DNA of 64,000 bases from an uncultured Candidatus Binatia bacterium (GTDB lineage: Bacteria > Desulfobacterota > Binatia > Binatales > Binataceae). Position 1 is the first letter of the stretch. Each line of letters begins with the position of its first letter. Shown here piece by piece: positions 1 to 26,541 of this stretch. The stretch is taken from NCBI GenBank assembly GCA_964429575.1, contig CAYSCX010000008.1, forward strand, positions 16,217 through 80,216. The letters are read 5' to 3'. The position numbers and the translations under genes are program-made. The notes under the pieces are model-generated. The model worked only from the letters and a program-made list of their open reading frames with translations. It had not been told where the DNA came from and did not search any database.

Positions 1-1001
1 CCTACCTTCGCGTGATCGTAAACCCGGCCGACGCGATAAGTCTCGAGCGGATGACCGGTGCGCCTCCACGCGGCATCGGGCGCAAGACGTTCGAGGCGAT
101 CGCGGAAATAGCCGCGCGCGAGAAGATCTCCATTTTCGAAGCGCTGGGACGCCTCGGCGCCGCCTCAGCCGTCGCGCTGCGAACCGCGAAGCAGGCCGAC
201 GCGCTGTACGAATGGATGCACGCGCTGGCTGTACGCGCACCAACTTTGGGCGTGCGCGCGCTGCTCGATGAAATCATCACGCAAAGCGGATACCTCGGAT
301 GGCTGGATACGCAGGCCGACGGCGCCGCGCGCCGTCAAAACCTCGCCGAGTTGCAGTCCGCCGCAAACGCATTCGATGCGGAAACCAGCCCCGGACGCCT
401 CGCCGATTTTCTCGAACGCGTCGCACTGGTGAATGATGCGGACCAGGTCGCGTCGCGAGGCGGACGGGTCGCGCTGATGACGCTGCACACCTCCAAGGGT
501 CTCGAATACCCGCTGGTCTTCATTGCGGGGATGGAGGAAGGGCTTTTTCCGCACAGCCGCTCGCAGGACCCCGGCGACGTCGAGGAGGAGCGGCGGCTCT
601 GCTACGTCGGCATGACCCGCGCGCGCCGCCTGCTATACGTGACCAACACGCGCTCGCGAGAGATGTACGGTGCACGCCAGGAGCCGCGTCCGTCGCGATT
701 CCTGGCGGAAATCGACCCCAGCCTGGTGCGCCGCCTCGGTGCGGTGCGGAGCACGCCGGTGCATGCGCGCGCCGCCGGCGATTCCTACATCGATTACACC
801 GACAGCCAGCTTGCGGAGGATGACCTTGCGCCCGACGCGATGGGCATCGGCGCGCGCGTCGTGCATCCGAGCTTTGGGCGAGGCGTAGTGCGCAGACGCG
901 AAGGGCGCGGCGACGGCGCCAAGGCGTGGGTCAACTTTGAGCGCGGCGGGCTGAAGCTGCTGGTGCTCAAATTTGCGAACCTGCGGCCGATTGCCGAGTA
1001 A
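1..1001 (+). CDS. uvrD: UvrD/PcrA/Rep-family SF1 DNA helicase, C-terminal part (5' end lies outside the window)
   Basis: The frame is open to the window edge (YLRVIVNPADAISLER...). SF1 motifs VALMTLHTSKGLEYPLVFIAGMEEGLFPH and RRLCYVGMTRARRLLYV are present. Confidence 0.9.
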   Translation, partial: YLRVIVNPADAISLERMTGAPPRGIGRKTFEAIAEIAAREKISIFEALGRLGAASAVALRTAKQADALYEWMHALAVRAPTLGVRALLDEIITQSGYLGWLDTQADGAARRQNLAELQSAANAFDAETSPGRLADFLERVALVNDADQVASRGGRVALMTLHTSKGLEYPLVFIAGMEEGLFPHSRSQDPGDVEEERRLCYVGMTRARRLLYVTNTRSREMYGARQEPRPSRFLAEIDPSLVRRLGAVRSTPVHARAAGDSYIDYTDSQLAEDDLAPDAMGIGARVVHPSFGRGVVRRREGRGDGAKAWVNFERGGLKLLVLKFANLRPIAE

Positions 1002-1028
1002 CGCGCGCTAACTTACAATTTCAAAAGG

Positions 1029-2153
1029 GTGGTGGCGGTTGCGGGGCGGAGGGGCGAGTCCGGGAAGCGTGGCCTGCCAGCATCATCATCGGTGAAGTAC
1101 CAGGTGCGGAAATCAGTAGTTTCAGCCGCGGCGTTGATCGTGGCGGCGCTGACGATCGCGTCGGCGCCTGAGGTCGCGCGCGCATGGGAGAACGTGGACT
1201 TCGCCAGACGCGCGCTCTTCGCGTACCCGATGCCCAAGGGCCGCGACGACATGATCGGCAATCCCATCATGTATCGCATCGACAAGGGCGACACGCTGCT
1301 CGACGTCGGACGCTGGTTCGGCGTTACCGCCAAGGAAATCTCGGATGCAAATGGCGGCCTTGACTGGTGGTCGCCGCCGGTGGGCCGACCCGTGATTTTG
1401 CCGACTGAACACATCCTGCCCGATGCGGATCGCAAGGGAATCGTGCTCAACATCCCGGAGATGCGCATCTACTACTACCACCCGGTCGCGGAGCGCGTCG
1501 CGAGTCGTTCGGAGGCGGTGAGCCGCGCCGCGTACCGCGTGCGCGGCGGATCAATGGATCGAGACATGTCGTCGCGCGTGGTTTATACCTTCCCGGTGGG
1601 GCTTGGGCGCTACGACTGGAAGACACCGGTCGGCAAGTTCAAGGTTCGCGGCAAGACGCGCAATCCAACCTGGGTGCTTCCTGATTCGATCTATCAGGAG
1701 CACGTCGAGCGCGACGGCGAGGCGCCCAAGCTGGTCAAGGGCGGCGACCCCGAAAATCCGCTGGGTCTCTACCGCATCGAGCTGACCCTGCCGCTATACG
1801 CGCTGCACGGAACCAACGTACCGTGGGGCGTCGGGATGCAAGTCAGCCACGGATGTGTGCGGCTCTACCCCGAGGACATCGAGCGGCTCTTCGACAAGGT
1901 CAAGGTCGGAACGCCGGGGCAGTTCGTGTATGAACCGATCAAATTCGGCTGGCGCGGCGATGCGCTATACGTCGAAGTACACGACGATCTCTACGGGATG
2001 TACCCGGGCCTGTGGGCGTATGCGCTGAGCGAAGTGAAGCGCGAGAAGCTCGAGGAATACGTCGATCCGCAAAAGCTCGAGAAGGCGGTCGTGCGCAAGA
2101 GCGGGCTTCCCACCTACGTGATGCCCGGACCGCCGCCAGACCTCGCCGGCTAA
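1029..2153 (+). CDS. L,D-transpeptidase (YkuD domain) with LysM domain
   Basis: LysM-like YRIDKGDTLLDVGRWFGVTAKEISDANG; YkuD catalytic motif ALHGTNVPWGVGMQVSHGCVRLYPEDI. The start is uncertain: an in-frame GTG at 1092 precedes a signal-like segment. Confidence 0.85.
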   Translation: MVAVAGRRGESGKRGLPASSSVKYQVRKSVVSAAALIVAALTIASAPEVARAWENVDFARRALFAYPMPKGRDDMIGNPIMYRIDKGDTLLDVGRWFGVTAKEISDANGGLDWWSPPVGRPVILPTEHILPDADRKGIVLNIPEMRIYYYHPVAERVASRSEAVSRAAYRVRGGSMDRDMSSRVVYTFPVGLGRYDWKTPVGKFKVRGKTRNPTWVLPDSIYQEHVERDGEAPKLVKGGDPENPLGLYRIELTLPLYALHGTNVPWGVGMQVSHGCVRLYPEDIERLFDKVKVGTPGQFVYEPIKFGWRGDALYVEVHDDLYGMYPGLWAYALSEVKREKLEEYVDPQKLEKAVVRKSGLPTYVMPGPPPDLAG

Positions 2154-2193
2154 TCTTTCGAGCCCGCCGAAACTTTTCCCGGACCGCCATCCG

Positions 2194-2676
2194 CTACACG
2201 TTTCGGGTCAAGGGGTGGCCGGCCCAGCCGGTATCGTACGGCGCGGTCATGCGCCCGATCGCGCGCAGACGCTTGAACTTCCACTCGCCGTTCACCCTCA
2301 CGTAGTCCTCCTCATGACGCCCGGACAGCCACCAAGCGCGGTTGCCATCGCGAAAAGTGAAAGGACCGAGGAAGTACCAAGTGCCTTTTGCGGTATCGCC
2401 CTGAACCTCGATGATCGGATTCATCGCGAAGTACTGCGAAAAGCTGATCTCCTTCTGAAAGCTGAGGAACAAGGCGCGCAGCGCTGCGTGCCCTTGATGC
2501 GCGCCGATACCTTCGGTCTCCCAGATCCCTTCGGCAGCGAACAGATTCGCTATTTCAGTGGCATTGTGATTGTCGTCGCACGCCCGGCAATACCGCGCCT
2601 TTAGTTTCTTGATCGCTTCGATGTCCTCAAGGATCGCGATTCTCTGTTCGAATGAGTTGATGGCCATCGTCGTCAC
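2194..2676 (-). CDS. SnoaL-like / NTF2-fold protein
   Basis: 160 aa. N-terminal IEAIKKLKARYCRACDD pattern typical of the SnoaL_4 / NTF2-like family. Clean ORF in a coding-dense region. Confidence 0.6.
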   Translation of the reverse strand: MTTMAINSFEQRIAILEDIEAIKKLKARYCRACDDNHNATEIANLFAAEGIWETEGIGAHQGHAALRALFLSFQKEISFSQYFAMNPIIEVQGDTAKGTWYFLGPFTFRDGNRAWWLSGRHEEDYVRVNGEWKFKRLRAIGRMTAPYDTGWAGHPLTRNV

Positions 2677-2829
2677 CTCCGGTTCGCGGTCGCAATCCTA
2701 TGCTGATCTCGTACCCGGCGTATCCTCTGGGCTGCCCGAACGTCTCGACCACTTCAAGTGTTATTGTAAACTGCCGCACTACCGAATGAAGTGAGATCAC
2801 GTCTTCCGCACGCAGGGGAGGAACTAATC

Positions 2830-3771
2830 ATGCTCGACGTTCGCCGCATGCTTATTGTTGCCGCGCTTCTCTCCGTCGGCTTTGCGAACCGCGCCGAGGC
2901 CGCATCACCGGTCGCGATCGCAACGGACGCTTGCCGGGCGACCGCGAAGGCGGCTCTGCGTTCCTGCCGGGCCGAAGCGCTGAGTGAGCAGTGGCTCGCC
3001 AAAGGAAAGTGCGACAACCTGCCTGATGCCGCGGCGACGACGGCTTGCAAGCAGCAAGCGGCGGCGGATGCCGAAGATGCGCTCATGACCTGCAATGAAC
3101 AGCGCGACCTGCGACAGATGGTGTGCATGCGCCTGGGCGCAGCACCCTACATCCCAGTGATCGATCCGGCGAACTTTGTCGCGACGATCGACAATCCCTT
3201 CTTCCCGCTGACCCCCGGCACAACCTTTATCTACGAGGGCGATACCGCCGACGGGTTCGAGCACGTCGAGTTCACCGTCACCCACAATACCCGCGTTATC
3301 CTGGGTGTCACCTGCATCGAGGTCCACGACACAGCGAGACTCAACGGCGTACTCCTGGAAGATACGCGCGATTGGTTTGCTCAGGACACCGATGGCAACG
3401 TCTGGTACTTCGGCGAAAACACCACACTCGTCGACGGCGGTTTGCCGGTGGACTTGTCGGGCACTTGGACGGCCGGTGTGGACGGGGCCCAGCCGGGCAT
3501 CATCATGAAGGCCCATCCGGCGATCGGCGACTTTTACCGCCAGGAGTTCCTGCTCGGCGAAGCCGAGGACTTGGCGGAAGTGAAGAGCCTCAGCGACTCC
3601 GCCACCGTCCCTTACGGCTCGTTCGATCACTGCCTGAAGACCGAGGAGAGTTCACCCCTGGCGCCCGGCGACGTCGAGAACAAGTTCTATGTCGCGGGGG
3701 TCGGCAATTTACTAACGATTGACCTGAGCACCGGCGAGAGATCGGAACTCGTGCAAATCACGACGGAATGA
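2830..3771 (+). CDS. secreted hypothetical protein
   Basis: ATG at 2830 preceded by GGGGAGGAA. N-terminal signal peptide MLDVRRMLIVAALLSVGFANRAEA. No family recognised. Confidence 0.6.
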   Translation: MLDVRRMLIVAALLSVGFANRAEAASPVAIATDACRATAKAALRSCRAEALSEQWLAKGKCDNLPDAAATTACKQQAAADAEDALMTCNEQRDLRQMVCMRLGAAPYIPVIDPANFVATIDNPFFPLTPGTTFIYEGDTADGFEHVEFTVTHNTRVILGVTCIEVHDTARLNGVLLEDTRDWFAQDTDGNVWYFGENTTLVDGGLPVDLSGTWTAGVDGAQPGIIMKAHPAIGDFYRQEFLLGEAEDLAEVKSLSDSATVPYGSFDHCLKTEESSPLAPGDVENKFYVAGVGNLLTIDLSTGERSELVQITTE

Positions 3772-23523: not shown

Positions 23524-23660
23524 TCAGCGCGGCCGCGCGTTGAGCGCGCCGTCCAGCCGTATCGTCTCACCGTTTAGGATCGCGTTTTCGACAATGTGAC
23601 GCGCCAGCGCCGCGTATTCGCGCGGCTGGCCGCCAAACTGCCGGTCGAAAAACGCCGTTA
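23524..23660 (-). pseudogene. C-terminal remnant resembling an SDR (3-hydroxyacyl-CoA dehydrogenase type), cut by the insertion
   Basis: The minus-strand frame reads ...[43 protein letters not shown]. This matches the conserved SDR C-terminal pattern (RLG-P-EYA...NG..IRLDGA). There is no upstream body. Confidence 0.6.
23647..23656. repeat. left copy of the 10-bp direct repeat GAAAAACGCC flanking the insertion
   Basis: Identical 10-mer at 26399-26408. Composition changes at this point. Confidence 0.6.
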
Positions 23661-24032
23661 AGACGCGCGTCGGTGTGTAGCCTCGGTGAAGTGTTCTTGA
23701 AGAGCGAGGGTACTGCTAGACGGTCGAGATTTTGGTCTAGACTGTTCTTTTTTCCAACGTCCAGTATCAAGCAGTTCAGGCGGCTGCTCGCGGCTCTTTC
23801 GCGAAACGGCGTTCTTTGTTATCTGCTTGCCTTGGCGCTTTTGAGCGACCCGCAACACGGGGAACTCGACACCTTCGCACAAGCAGGGCTTTCCTTCGGC
23901 GCCACCCGAAAGGATGTCCCACCAGTTCCTTCGTTGCTTGCTGCCGCGCGCGGCCATCTTGACCATAGCCTCGTCGATGAGGTTGACCACATCTTTATAG
24001 CCGTTATCGCTGAGCCATTTGCGGCAGGTCAT
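23658..24032 (-). CDS. hypothetical protein (124 aa), family unknown
   Basis: The ATG overlaps the stop of the upstream 274-aa gene (ATGA at 24029-24032). The N-terminal 75 aa look globular ([18 protein letters not shown]...[11 protein letters not shown]...FPVL). The C-terminal third is basic and low-complexity. The stop codon sits 1 nt inside the islet edge. Confidence 0.55.
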
Positions 24033-24853
24033 ACTTCCTCCGGTTCGTCATCTTCAGCACCATCGTCATCTCCCAGGGATTGCCAGATATGAACTCGGTT
24101 CTGTCGTCCGGTCTCTATCATCCAGATTTGGTCCTCTCCGTTCACAAGCTGAATGATACTTCGAACGAAGAGGATCCGGAACAGAAAACGCACGTTTTGA
24201 AGCTCGTCTTCAGTTTTGTGCGGGAAGATGAACCGCGCGACGGCGGTCGTTTCGTCAATGAGATACTTCTCGCCCCGTTTCTGAATAGTCGCTACCTCAT
24301 CCTGAGTTCTGAGCTTTCCGGAACGAAATCGTCCGTCGACATGGTAAATGGAGTAGCCGACGAAGTGGTCCTCGATGAATCGTAAGATGTTCTCGAAATA
24401 GTTTTCATCAGAATCGTCGGAGAACTTGAGGTTTGTCTTTAGTTCAGGTGTGCCAATAGTCTTGAGTCGGGCAAGCAGACTGTCCTTGTAGAATAGTGCG
24501 TCGAGAGTCGTCCTCAAATGCGTCTCGTTGGTAAGAGGCATTAGGAAATCGTAAATCATTACGTCCGAGCTGCTCGGATCGTAGCTGGTGACGACGCGTC
24601 GGACTTGAGTGACGTGCCGCTTGAATTTTGGCCAACTTACGAATTTTCGGAATGCTTCGGATACTCGATACTGATCCGGCCCGATCTTCTCAATTAGGTC
24701 CTTGTAGTGCTTGCTAAGGTACGTGTTCAGCGTGCCGGGTTTTTCCCATCCGGTAGCCTCGCGGAATTCTTCCTTTGTGAATGGCTCCTGGGACTGTAGA
24801 TGCTCAAGAAGGAAGCGATGCGCCGCGCGTTGAGTGGTGTCGTCTGCCATCAC
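24029..24853 (-). CDS. hypothetical protein (274 aa), possible N-terminal wHTH, acidic C-terminal tail; family unknown
   Basis: Long clean ORF in lower-GC DNA, with GTG 24853 / ATG 24850 as possible starts. The tail [14 protein letters not shown] is strongly acidic. No catalytic motif recognised by eye. Confidence 0.65.
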   Translation of the reverse strand: MMADDTTQRAAHRFLLEHLQSQEPFTKEEFREATGWEKPGTLNTYLSKHYKDLIEKIGPDQYRVSEAFRKFVSWPKFKRHVTQVRRVVTSYDPSSSDVMIYDFLMPLTNETHLRTTLDALFYKDSLLARLKTIGTPELKTNLKFSDDSDENYFENILRFIEDHFVGYSIYHVDGRFRSGKLRTQDEVATIQKRGEKYLIDETTAVARFIFPHKTEDELQNVRFLFRILFVRSIIQLVNGEDQIWMIETGRQNRVHIWQSLGDDDGAEDDEPEEV

Positions 24854-25024
24854 ATTCGCTCATGGCGCCATGCGCCAGATCCGAATCGGCCGAAAACAAG
24901 TTGTCAAGCCTCGTAATTTTAGCCCTTCGGCGGTTTCCAATAAATAAGGGAATTTAGGCGGGCTTTGACGTAATATGGGCAACCAGTTCTCGGATCTCAG
25001 GGGCTGGCCGGGACTTCTGTCGAA

Positions 25025-25441
25025 TTAGAGCTTGCCCTGATTTGCTCTTGCGACGAAACCTTCGAGGGTCAGGATGTCAACCTTATCTGCGTCCACGAGA
25101 TACGATTTCAGACCGCCACCAACATAAAAGTTTCGTAACTTCCAACCCTCGCCGCCGAGTACAAGATATGCCTCGTCATAGGTGCCCTGGCGGACGGCGT
25201 CGGCTAGGCAGATAACCTCGAACGGAACTTTCTGCTCAGCTGTGCCGGACACTTGTTGCCATTTGAGCGACACTAAATATTTGAGTCCGTTCTTTTCGGC
25301 GATTACGTCGACGAAATGCCTGCCGCCGCCGAACCGATCACCGATATGTTGTTGTGTGAGATATGCGTAACCGCCGCGCTTGAGCGCGGGCAGAATCATC
25401 GCTTCGAGAACTCCGCCCGTTGTGGTGCTTCGCGGAGACAT
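25025..25441 (-). CDS. minimal PD-(D/E)xK-like nuclease (Hjc/VRR-NUC-like core), candidate restriction endonuclease
   Basis: 138 aa. E13 ... D45 (FVDVIA) ... S58-L-K60 (YLVSLKWQQVSGTAEQK) follows the E..D..(E/S)xK spacing of small PD-(D/E)xK nucleases. Its ATG lies 3 nt after the Dam stop. Confidence 0.5.
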   Translation of the reverse strand: MSPRSTTTGGVLEAMILPALKRGGYAYLTQQHIGDRFGGGRHFVDVIAEKNGLKYLVSLKWQQVSGTAEQKVPFEVICLADAVRQGTYDEAYLVLGGEGWKLRNFYVGGGLKSYLVDADKVDILTLEGFVARANQGKL

Positions 25442-25444
25442 TAC

Positions 25445-26257
25445 TTAGAAATTCTTGATCGCGAGAACCTCTCGAGCCGGTGTGCGATCGCCAGTGCAAC
25501 TGATCATACGAGGCGCCTCGAGAAAATTAAGTGTGAATTTTAGCTTCCGGTAGAGGGCCACAATTCGCTCAGTGGCTTGGTTCGAGAGTACGACTGGACC
25601 TGGGTGCTTCGCGAGCCACTCGGCTGCGCGTACCTGCTCCTCCCAACTGAATCCCTGCTTTGAATATTGCGTGAACTGGACGTCGTATGGTGGATCGGCG
25701 TAGACAAAATCGTCTGGTTCGAGAGGGACCACGGCGAAATCCATGTTTGCGAAGTCGCAGTTCGCGAAGAGTCTCCGATACGGCGTAAAGTCTCGCGTAT
25801 ACGTGATTTGCGCATATCGGCCGAATGGGACGTTGAAACCCCCGCTGCGATTGAATCTGCAGAGACCGTTGTAACCGGTTCGGTTGAGGTAGTAGAACAG
25901 CGCCGCGGCCTCCTCGCCATCGGCTTCGCCCTCCGCGAGAAGTTGGTTGAAGCGATCGCGTTGCTCGTAGTACGCGCGCTCCTTGTTAATCATCGCGACC
26001 GAGGTTTTCAGGCCGCGCTTGAGCGAGCGATAGAAATTTATCAGATGCGGATTGATATCGTTGAGTAATGCCTCGTCTGGAGAGAGTCCGGCGGTAACTG
26101 CAAGTCCCCCGCAAAACGGCTCTACGAGGCGACGATGTTTGTGATCAGCCCACAAAGCGCGCAAGTGTGGGACCTGCCACCGCTTCCCGCCGGCCCACTT
26201 CAACGGCGGCTTGAAATCGCCGTTCGCGTCCACCTTCCTCACCTTGCTCATCCCCAA
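25445..26257 (-). CDS. Dam-class (D12, alpha) DNA N6-adenine methyltransferase
   Basis: KWAGGK, EPFCGGLAV (FxGxG), NDINPHLI, YNGLCRFNRSGGFNVPFG and catalytic DPPY (VYADPPYD). The start is TTG 26257 or ATG 26251. Confidence 0.92.
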   Translation of the reverse strand: MGMSKVRKVDANGDFKPPLKWAGGKRWQVPHLRALWADHKHRRLVEPFCGGLAVTAGLSPDEALLNDINPHLINFYRSLKRGLKTSVAMINKERAYYEQRDRFNQLLAEGEADGEEAAALFYYLNRTGYNGLCRFNRSGGFNVPFGRYAQITYTRDFTPYRRLFANCDFANMDFAVVPLEPDDFVYADPPYDVQFTQYSKQGFSWEEQVRAAEWLAKHPGPVVLSNQATERIVALYRKLKFTLNFLEAPRMISCTGDRTPAREVLAIKNF

Positions 26258-26398
26258 TCATGGAGTTATCACAGGCTTTTCGATTGCGGAAATGGCTTTC
26301 ATGGTAGTTTCAACAGACGCTTAAGCTCCTCCCTGTGGCGGAGCTGGGATTCACAAATCGATTCCCCTCTCACTGGAGAGGCGCATCAATTCGTCCGT

Positions 26399-26408
26399 GA
26401 AAAACGCC
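26399..26408. repeat. right copy of the 10-bp direct repeat GAAAAACGCC
   Basis: Identical to 23647-23656. On the minus strand both copies encode A-F-F in the same codon phase. Confidence 0.6.
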
Positions 26409-26541
26409 CCGCGAGACTTGCGGATGCGCCCCAAGGCCACTTGGTACTTGGTTTCCGACAGCGCGGCGAAAATGAGTTCCGAGGGAGAGCGCTTCGCCAC
26501 GATCGTCGCGGCTACACCCGTCTAGGTCCTACCTCCGCCAC

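Follow-up and report, generated by a model that had tools for sequence, protein, structure and literature searches.

A separable two-gene module of undescribed families linked to DNA methyltransferases in small restriction-modification cassettes

Introduction

What do two small genes of no recognised family contribute to the restriction-modification (R-M) genes beside which they travel? The question is raised by a 64,000-nt stretch of DNA from an uncultured Candidatus Binatia bacterium (GenBank assembly GCA_964429575.1, contig CAYSCX010000008.1, positions 16,217 to 80,216), here called the window, whose own numbering is used throughout. On its minus strand, the genes of a D12-family DNA methyltransferase (MTase) and of a small PDDEXK_11 nuclease are followed by two open reading frames (ORFs), which we call A and B. 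A preliminary description, made from the DNA letters, had singled out this pair as a possible undescribed system, with proposed roles ranging from phage defence or R-M accessory functions to toxin-antitoxin or abortive infection. Here, we show that A-B is a separable two-gene module spread over more than 10 phyla, and we argue from its gene neighbourhoods that it depends on the adjoining MTase, and not on the nuclease, possibly as a second, restriction-like arm that shares the MTase of the cassette.

Two genes of undescribed families

Gene A (24029-24853, minus strand) encodes a two-domain protein of 274 aa when read from a GTG at 24853. The start that is conserved among its homologues is an ATG at 24850 (MADDTTQ...), one codon inside the GTG, which gives 273 aa. 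Gene B (23658-24032, minus strand; 124 aa) overlaps A by ATGA at 24029-24032. This layout was confirmed, as was the distance of 171 nt between A and the nuclease stop at 25025, and the 4-nt overlap of A and B recurs in five other loci (L001, L003, L127, L129 and L130). Both are real genes and not chance ORFs, given the number of their homologues: 686 for A at E<=1e-3 in a database clustered at 90%, at least 458 clusters at 50% identity for A in an exhaustive profile search, and at least 129 clusters at 90% identity for B.

Neither protein matched a family in Pfam (for B, at E<=1), NCBIfam, PADLOC or PHROGs, in agreement with the preliminary description, which had been able to place neither of them. 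A search of A against PADLOC-DB v2 returned RT_UG6 alone, at an E value of 0.023 that we regard as noise, and the search of B returned nothing. Long members of the A family likewise carried no Pfam domains and turned out to be A-B fusions. According to these profile searches, A and B belong to undescribed families, and in this respect the earlier proposal of an undescribed system stands. Our literature searches, which were limited, found no prior description of such a module, no literature on PDDEXK_11 and no report of an MTase-A-B layout with a shuttling adaptor domain.

Linkage to a methyltransferase

The surroundings of the module were surveyed from two sides with the same hidden Markov models (HMMs). 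Searching from A gave 40 genome loci from more than 10 phyla, in all of which A is present by construction, whereas searching from the nuclease, which removes this ascertainment bias, gave 80 metagenome loci with PDDEXK_11.

In the HMM maps of the A loci, the typical gene order is MTase, PDDEXK_11, A, B, and every full-length A that can be assessed has an MTase no more than about 1 kb away. These MTases are of three types. Most loci hold a member of the close D12 clade; a distant D12 clade (33-35% identity) is found in L014, L016, L018, L022, L024 and L029, and an N6_N4_Mtase (PF01555) in L015, L017, L030, L034 (an Asgard metagenome-assembled genome, MAG) and L043. Of these A-MTase loci, about 22 of 32 include PDDEXK_11 and 10 of about 32 do not; B is found in about 27 of 32, either following or preceding A, or on the opposite strand. 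None of these loci showed an intact full-length A-B pair without an MTase. Judged by these neighbourhoods, the A-B module depends on the MTase and not on the nuclease. By the reasoning of Helbrecht et al. (PMC11037411), enzymes that are blocked by modification, and not those that depend on it, are the ones expected to pair with a protecting MTase 'of any type'.

Four copies of A without an MTase in Vicinamibacterales (L026, L028, L031 and L033) were considered as counter-examples and set aside as degenerate, repeated relics. They are near-identical, with an intact C-terminal domain and a scrambled N-terminal region, and L028 and L031 come from a single MAG. Such degenerate copies recur, together with their flanking ORFs, at two or more sites of one genome and have neither MTase nor B, which looks like a relic on a repeated element.

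Among the PDDEXK_11 loci, an MTase (D12 or N6_N4) was found in 61 of the 63 with enough upstream sequence, A in 13 and B in 11 of the 38 with at least 1,300 nt downstream. The MTase and PDDEXK_11 therefore form an autonomous pair, to which A-B is an add-on. The junction between the two pairs is sharp at the nucleotide level: blastn homology between the window and relatives that have only the MTase and nuclease genes (up to 86% nucleotide identity, L046) ends at 25023-25032, the stop codon of the nuclease. L006, which has all four genes, is homologous to the window down to 23656, the stop codon of B. Sequence identities co-vary within MTase plus nuclease and within A plus B, not between the pairs. 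A-B is thus a separable two-gene module, and the earlier view of the pair as a discrete unit riding with R-M genes is borne out.

Domains of protein A

The AlphaFold2 (AF2) model of A, computed on a 34-sequence alignment, has a mean predicted local distance difference test score (pLDDT) of 82.4. The N-terminal domain (residues 1-94; 24572-24853, minus strand) is basic, with an isoelectric point (pI) of 9.3, and is modelled at pLDDT 86-96 as helices 5-21, 27-34 and 39-49 followed by strands 54-56 and 62-64. Foldseek matched it to Z-alpha with a probability of 0.99, in support of the winged-helix-like N-terminus proposed before.

The C-terminal domain (residues 97-258; 24080-24565, minus strand), a candidate effector or enzyme, had been described as beta-rich. 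Its model is instead alpha/beta with a ferredoxin-like topology: strands and helices follow in the order b-a-b-b-a-b-b with a large helical insert (residues 110-163), and helices flank a five-stranded beta-sheet. In an alignment of long and short forms of A at 35-65% identity (A3), E110, D118, D124, Y167, S168, R177, Y197, D200, E201, T202, T203, R222 and E240 are invariant in this domain, W244 and W257 also counting among its invariant residues. H171 and R175 are near-invariant, position 102 is either D or E, and the same alignment shows no invariant lysine. The invariant set probably constitutes an active site.

The protein ends in an acidic tail (24032-24079, minus strand) predicted to be disordered (pLDDT <50). 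Both tails noted in the preliminary description, the acidic one of A and the long basic one of B, are present here, but they are specific to the clade and not features of the families. The idea that the acidic tail pairs with a basic partner fares worse, since this tail is missing in most clades and shows no covariation with the tail of B (rho 0.09).

Structural searches with A returned no PDB chain at E<=1e-3. The best Foldseek matches were generic ferredoxin-like proteins and a phage S-adenosylmethionine (SAM) lyase (6zm9 with probability 0.98 and 6znb with 0.91, at template modelling, TM, scores of 0.45-0.51); in BFVD, they were small uncharacterised phage proteins (E 5.6e-5, TM 0.50). There was no nuclease among the Foldseek matches, and A shows no link to DpnI in sequence or fold. 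We also considered whether the C-terminal domain might be an unrecognised PD-(D/E)XK domain related to the adjoining PDDEXK_11 and rejected this at an hhalign probability of 0.2%.

The C-terminal domain also occurs alone, with all invariant residues kept, in short or differently fused forms from Spirochaetes and Bacillota (L036, L038, L040 and L042) and in P0361, with no MTase in the vicinity. In L042, the short-form gene precedes genes for a radical-SAM/HHH protein and a DUF4130 protein, a pair annotated with putative roles in the repair or modification of DNA.

Protein B, fusions and the decay of A

B comprises a conserved basic core (residues 1-93; 23754-24032, minus strand; pI 9.7), which AF2 models as three helices, a beta-hairpin and a further helix at a pLDDT of about 80, and a basic tail that is disordered and variable in the alignment of the family (A2). 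The search of the PDB gave neither a fold neighbour nor a sequence match, and HTH_3 and related helix-turn-helix (HTH) models do not match B; the model would therefore represent a new fold. A comparison of B with the N-terminal domain of A led us to reject homology between them. The long-tailed variants of B in the clade of the window end in a recurring (R/H)(R/A)(R/K)AS in the last five columns of alignment A2, the rest of the tail being unconserved, and this C-terminus may be a short linear motif.

Gene fusions connect B with both of its neighbours. B is fused C-terminally to a distant D12 MTase in L014, L018 and L022 and N-terminally in L029, and these MTases contain bona fide MethyltransfD12 domains. 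In P0065, P0281, P0319 and P0371, B is fused to the C-terminus of A, and P0065 stands in a normal cassette, directly after the PDDEXK_11 gene. Fusions thus join B to the MTase and to A, never to the nuclease. Following Rosetta-stone logic, B would work with both A and the MTase because it is fused to each, and we suggest that it links the two.

A domain swap bears on the C-terminal part of A. Beside the cassette of L005 (9317-10174, minus strand of that locus) lies the gene of a 285-aa protein in which an A-type N-terminal winged-helix domain is joined to TIR_2. Residues 7-85 of this protein are homologous to residues 9-94 of A (HMM E value 5e-11; hhalign probability 95%, E 2.8e-8, 34% identity), and the TIR domain starts at residue 90, where the C-terminal domain of A would begin. 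The C-terminal domain of A therefore occupies the slot of a known bacterial defence effector, TIR.

A also decays in preference to its neighbours. Counting frameshifts, stops and reduction to stubs among assessable genes in loci not found through A, A is split or a stub in 8 of 19 cases. Such damage affects 3 of 61 MTases (Fisher p = 2.8e-4 against A) and none of the 12 B genes. L099 (4358-5126) and L103 (1445-2213), which come from different metagenome samples, share one and the same frameshift, near codon 47 of A. This frameshift is a real allele, not an assembly error, and could mark a pseudogene or something regulated.

Possible functions of the module

We consider that A-B may well be a methylation-gated, restriction-like effector arm that shares the MTase of its cassette, a reading to which we give a little less than even confidence. 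The MTase would mark host DNA; A would sense DNA, or be recruited to it, through its basic winged-helix domain and would act through the C-terminal alpha/beta domain with its invariant acidic and polar constellation; and B, small and basic, would connect A with the MTase or with DNA, as an adaptor or a DNA-binding element. Such an arm would function only with the adjoining DNA methyltransferase and would have no need of the small PD-(D/E)XK nuclease. We infer that A is an effector on unmethylated (non-self) DNA, and its chemistry and the physical binding among A, B and the MTase are likewise conjectural.

This reading is favoured because the module depends on an MTase whose type is interchangeable, is independent of the nuclease and includes a protein, B, that bridges the MTase and A. 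It is also favoured by a C-terminal domain with an active-site-like signature in an effector slot and by the preferential decay of A, and, as regards mobility and setting, by the low-GC islet, the spread over many phyla and some defence-type neighbourhoods. Winged-helix fusions that stand beside a protecting MTase have been classed as modification-blocked and those that stand alone as type IV (Helbrecht et al., PMC11037411); A, always beside an MTase, matches the former class, which supports the reading further. The earlier suggestion of a defence or R-M accessory role agrees with the strict MTase linkage in this form, but not in that of a free-standing toxin-antitoxin or abortive-infection system, which is unlikely.

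Several observations weigh against it. Profile and Foldseek searches recognised no nuclease, NADase or other effector fold or motif in A, and it is context, and nothing else, that points to an effector role. The short forms that consist of the C-terminal domain (L036, L038, L040 and L042) occur without any MTase; the activity of this domain is therefore not intrinsically dependent on a protecting methylase. The fusion of the N-terminal domain to TIR was found in one locus only, and one database search for more found none. Some of the frameshifts in A could be assembly errors, especially in nanopore MAGs. Finally, three of the eight annotated neighbourhoods (L001, L128 and L129) are plain housekeeping DNA.

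A bolder version of the favoured reading, which we regard as possible though on balance doubtful, is that A carries in its C-terminal domain a restriction effector of a new class. This would be a nuclease with a fold beyond the five described for restriction endonucleases, or else an activity that is not nucleolytic; the winged-helix domain would target it to unmethylated DNA, and B would couple it physically to the protecting MTase. MTase, A and B would then constitute a compact R-M-like system that can be stacked on a classical type II pair.

The alternative that survives best, unlikely as we think it, is that A and B are regulators or modulators of the R-M cassette. In that case, B would be a DNA-binding protein of the controller type, and A would be a transcription factor in which a winged helix is joined to a domain that senses a ligand; the two would time or tune the expression of MTase and nuclease or the activity of the MTase. 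A winged helix followed by a ferredoxin-like domain is a common regulator layout, the weak Foldseek matches of A include IclR, BusR and MotA, and regulatory domains fused to MTases or restriction endonucleases are known in R-M systems; B, for its part, is small and basic, is modelled as three helices and a hairpin, and is fused to both the MTase and A. However, MTase-nuclease pairs do without A-B in two thirds of loci, no HTH model matches B and the candidate operator palindrome upstream of A is unconserved. The invariant acidic and polar set in A looks catalytic, its preferential inactivation would be unusual for a benign regulator, and its N-terminal domain has been swapped onto a TIR effector.

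It is improbable that the PDDEXK_11 enzyme is a bare catalytic core for which A and B, as additional subunits, provide DNA recognition or recruitment. The tight packing of the four genes, which often overlap or abut, would suit such a role, as would the minimal size of the nuclease and the basic, likely DNA-binding character of both A and B. Yet A-B is missing from 25 of 38 nuclease loci, among them those of the window's closest relatives; the nuclease, in turn, is missing from 10 of about 32 loci with A-B; and the fusions of B never involve the nuclease.

Slightly less probable still is an action of the C-terminal domain of A on SAM or a related metabolite, by which it would adjust methylation or deprive phage methylation of its substrate, instead of attacking DNA. 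Among solved folds, that of a phage SAM lyase is the closest (6zm9 and 6znb, above), the partners of the module are SAM-dependent MTases, the best BFVD matches are phage proteins of similar size and the short form in L042 adjoins a radical-SAM gene. Against this, the TM-scores are poor (0.45-0.55, with a root-mean-square deviation of 6-9 Å), there is no sequence signal and a host-encoded destroyer of SAM beside its own MTase is hard to rationalise. SAM lyases are, moreover, generic ferredoxin-like trimers with about three conserved residues, and likeness to their fold carries little weight (PMC7877911).

An autonomous toxin-antitoxin or abortive-infection pair hitch-hiking beside R-M genes seems quite improbable, although the preliminary description had named both kinds of module among the possibilities. 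A and B are a small overlapping pair in an islet, A is often inactivated, and a weak sequence match in the PDB links A to the YoeB toxin (E 2.5e-4). We rejected the YoeB/RelE lead, since the match spans only 62 residues, which AF2 models as the winged helix, and since no RelE/YoeB-type Pfam model (YoeB_toxin, ParE) matches any of 34 family members, the only toxin model to do so being YjhX_toxin, in one member at E 0.028. A free-standing pair is also contradicted by the MTase, which is strictly adjacent wherever this can be judged, by the fusion of B to an MTase in four loci and by the lack, among the loci surveyed, of an intact pair without an MTase. The least probable reading makes A a type IV-like enzyme that depends on modification, with a winged helix that reads methylated DNA as the target of attack. 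Prokaryotic winged-helix domains can read N6-methyladenine (m6A) and are fused to varied nuclease domains, but 87% of such enzymes stand alone, and a cognate Dam-type MTase is avoided (PMC11037411), whereas A always adjoins an adenine-type MTase and carries no recognised nuclease domain.

The cassette in the window and its setting

The MTase of the window (25445-26257, minus strand; 270 aa) is a D12/Dam-family N6-adenine DNA methyltransferase (PF02086, E 4e-40; TIGR00571, 190 bits), also matched by the MTase models of PADLOC. The PDDEXK_11 nuclease (25025-25441, minus strand; 138 aa; Pfam PF20472, E 1.2e-11) is a putative restriction endonuclease with a canonical core motif, D45...(E/S)58-x-K60 plus GTAE(Q/E)K. 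One PDDEXK_11 clade (64-70% identical) pairs with either D12 or N6_N4 MTases, the N6_N4 pairing of L077-L079, L088, L100, L102, L107, L120 and L121 contrasting with the other PDDEXK_11 loci, and L029 carries both MTase types. Pairs of D12 and N6_N4 MTases are found in the GATC systems DpnII and MboI. By analogy, which is a hint and no more, the 138-aa nuclease may be a very small GATC-type restriction enzyme; the ratio for GATC avoidance in the window (0.81) is not diagnostic.

The 171-nt spacer between the nuclease gene and A (24854-25024, minus strand) is the junction of the two modules. In alignment, it shows patchy conservation only, and it is not kept in L003. The earlier suggestion that A and B form their own transcription unit may hold, at best, in the clade of the window; in many other loci, A abuts or overlaps the nuclease gene (gaps of -1 to 8 nt in L005, L126, L127 and L130). 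Scanning the cassette for sigma-70 promoters and terminators was uninformative. The sole palindrome in the region upstream of A, the 12-nt CATGGCGCCATG (24860-24873), was examined as a candidate operator and rejected, being conserved neither in L007 nor in L003.

Upstream of the MTase, a conserved leader (26258-26410, minus strand) marks the approximate 5' edge of the cassette, blastn homology beginning at 26410 with L046 and L007 and at 26316 with L006. Of this region of the window, 26390-26486 is conserved in L003 and 26258-26410 in L007 and L046. Within 26350-26500 (minus strand), there is a short frame (VAKRSPSELIFAALSETKYQVALGRIRKSRGAFFTDELMRLSSERGIDL, followed by a stop codon) without a Pfam match, which could be what is left of a gene, or else a small ORF or leader that belongs to the cassette. 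At the opposite end, 23524-23655 (minus strand) holds what our own reading of its motifs suggests is the 3' remnant of a short-chain dehydrogenase/reductase (SDR)-type gene, a 41-aa fragment that Pfam does not recognise and that abuts the stop codon of B. The cassette seems to have been inserted into a host gene, or to have replaced most of one, because no matching 5' part of this gene is found upstream of the cassette. A search for terminal repeats around the cassette gave nothing convincing. The GC content of 0.46-0.58 over 23750-26500, set against about 0.63 in the flanks, makes this region a low-GC islet, as the preliminary description had recognised in calling it compositionally foreign.

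The A family extends over more than 10 phyla at 35-87% identity, with hosts in Acidobacteriota, Binatia/'delta' lineages, Chloroflexota, Verrucomicrobiota, Cyanobacteriota, Gammaproteobacteria, Armatimonadota and an Asgard archaeon MAG. The only cultured strain among the loci is Colwellia psychrerythraea ND2E (L025), in which (997-2857, minus strand) A lies at the end of the contig, with its upstream, MTase side cut off, and is followed by an RVT_1 reverse transcriptase gene and an unannotated gene of 316 aa; the reverse transcriptase may be a retron or a DRT-type neighbour. No relatives of A were found on plasmids, phages or IMG/VR viral contigs. The annotated neighbourhoods are mixed. Defence-rich neighbourhoods surround the module in L003 (reverse transcriptase, AbiTii plus TIR, PIN), L005 (EcoRII plus Dcm, TIR, HipA) and L127 (AIPR, integrase), transposases flank it in L126 and L130, and L001, L128 and L129 have housekeeping surroundings.

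Comparison with known systems

If the favoured reading is right, A-B would constitute a widespread modification-linked immunity module, both of whose specific proteins lack a family model and one of which lacks a structural neighbour. With it, the R-M repertoire would gain a new effector domain and an adaptor, likewise new, that couples to MTases, and one methyltransferase would be shown to license two unrelated restriction arms. A and B provide two new families for Pfam, DefenseFinder and PADLOC to model, and the cassette, with three or four genes in about 2.6 kb, is clonable.

The winged-helix-effector fusions known from defence (DpnI-like proteins and wH/HTH-TIR proteins) resemble A in having an N-terminal winged helix (wH) followed by a swappable C-terminal effector, as the TIR protein of L005 illustrates. 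Type IV fusions of this kind, however, are stand-alone and read m6A (PMC11037411), whereas A is obligately linked to an MTase and its C-terminal domain is not a recognised effector. The nearest structural neighbours of that domain, the phage SAM lyases (Svi3-3 and T3 SAMase), share a five-stranded sheet with helices; they differ from A in the low TM-scores, the lack of sequence similarity and the helical insert of A at residues 110-163. SAM-lyase trimers have their ligand site between subunits, and the conserved ligand-binding residues in Svi3-3 are G56, Y58, E69 and Q104 (PMC7877911).

The RAMA domain (PF18755), which is fused to restriction enzymes and adenine methylases, offers a parallel for B as a small accessory to the MTase or to the presumed restriction side. 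In L043, B is absent, and a RAMA domain stands in the equivalent place at the C-terminus of the N6_N4 MTase. PF18755 does not match B in sequence; this is an analogy and not a homology.

The closest comparison is with type II R-M systems, such as those with heterodimeric restriction endonucleases or of the DpnII/MboI type. Like them, the A-B cassette is mobile and combines a D12 or N6_N4 MTase with genes that are never found without an MTase; in both, MTase families are interchangeable round a conserved partner, and the non-MTase gene decays preferentially. Unlike them, A has none of the known restriction endonuclease folds (PD-(D/E)XK, HNH, GIY-YIG, PLD and half-pipe) by any of our searches, two thirds of the cassettes already hold a PD-(D/E)XK nuclease, and a third small protein, B, is fused to the MTase or to A. 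The logic is that of an R-M system, and A and B are undescribed families within it.

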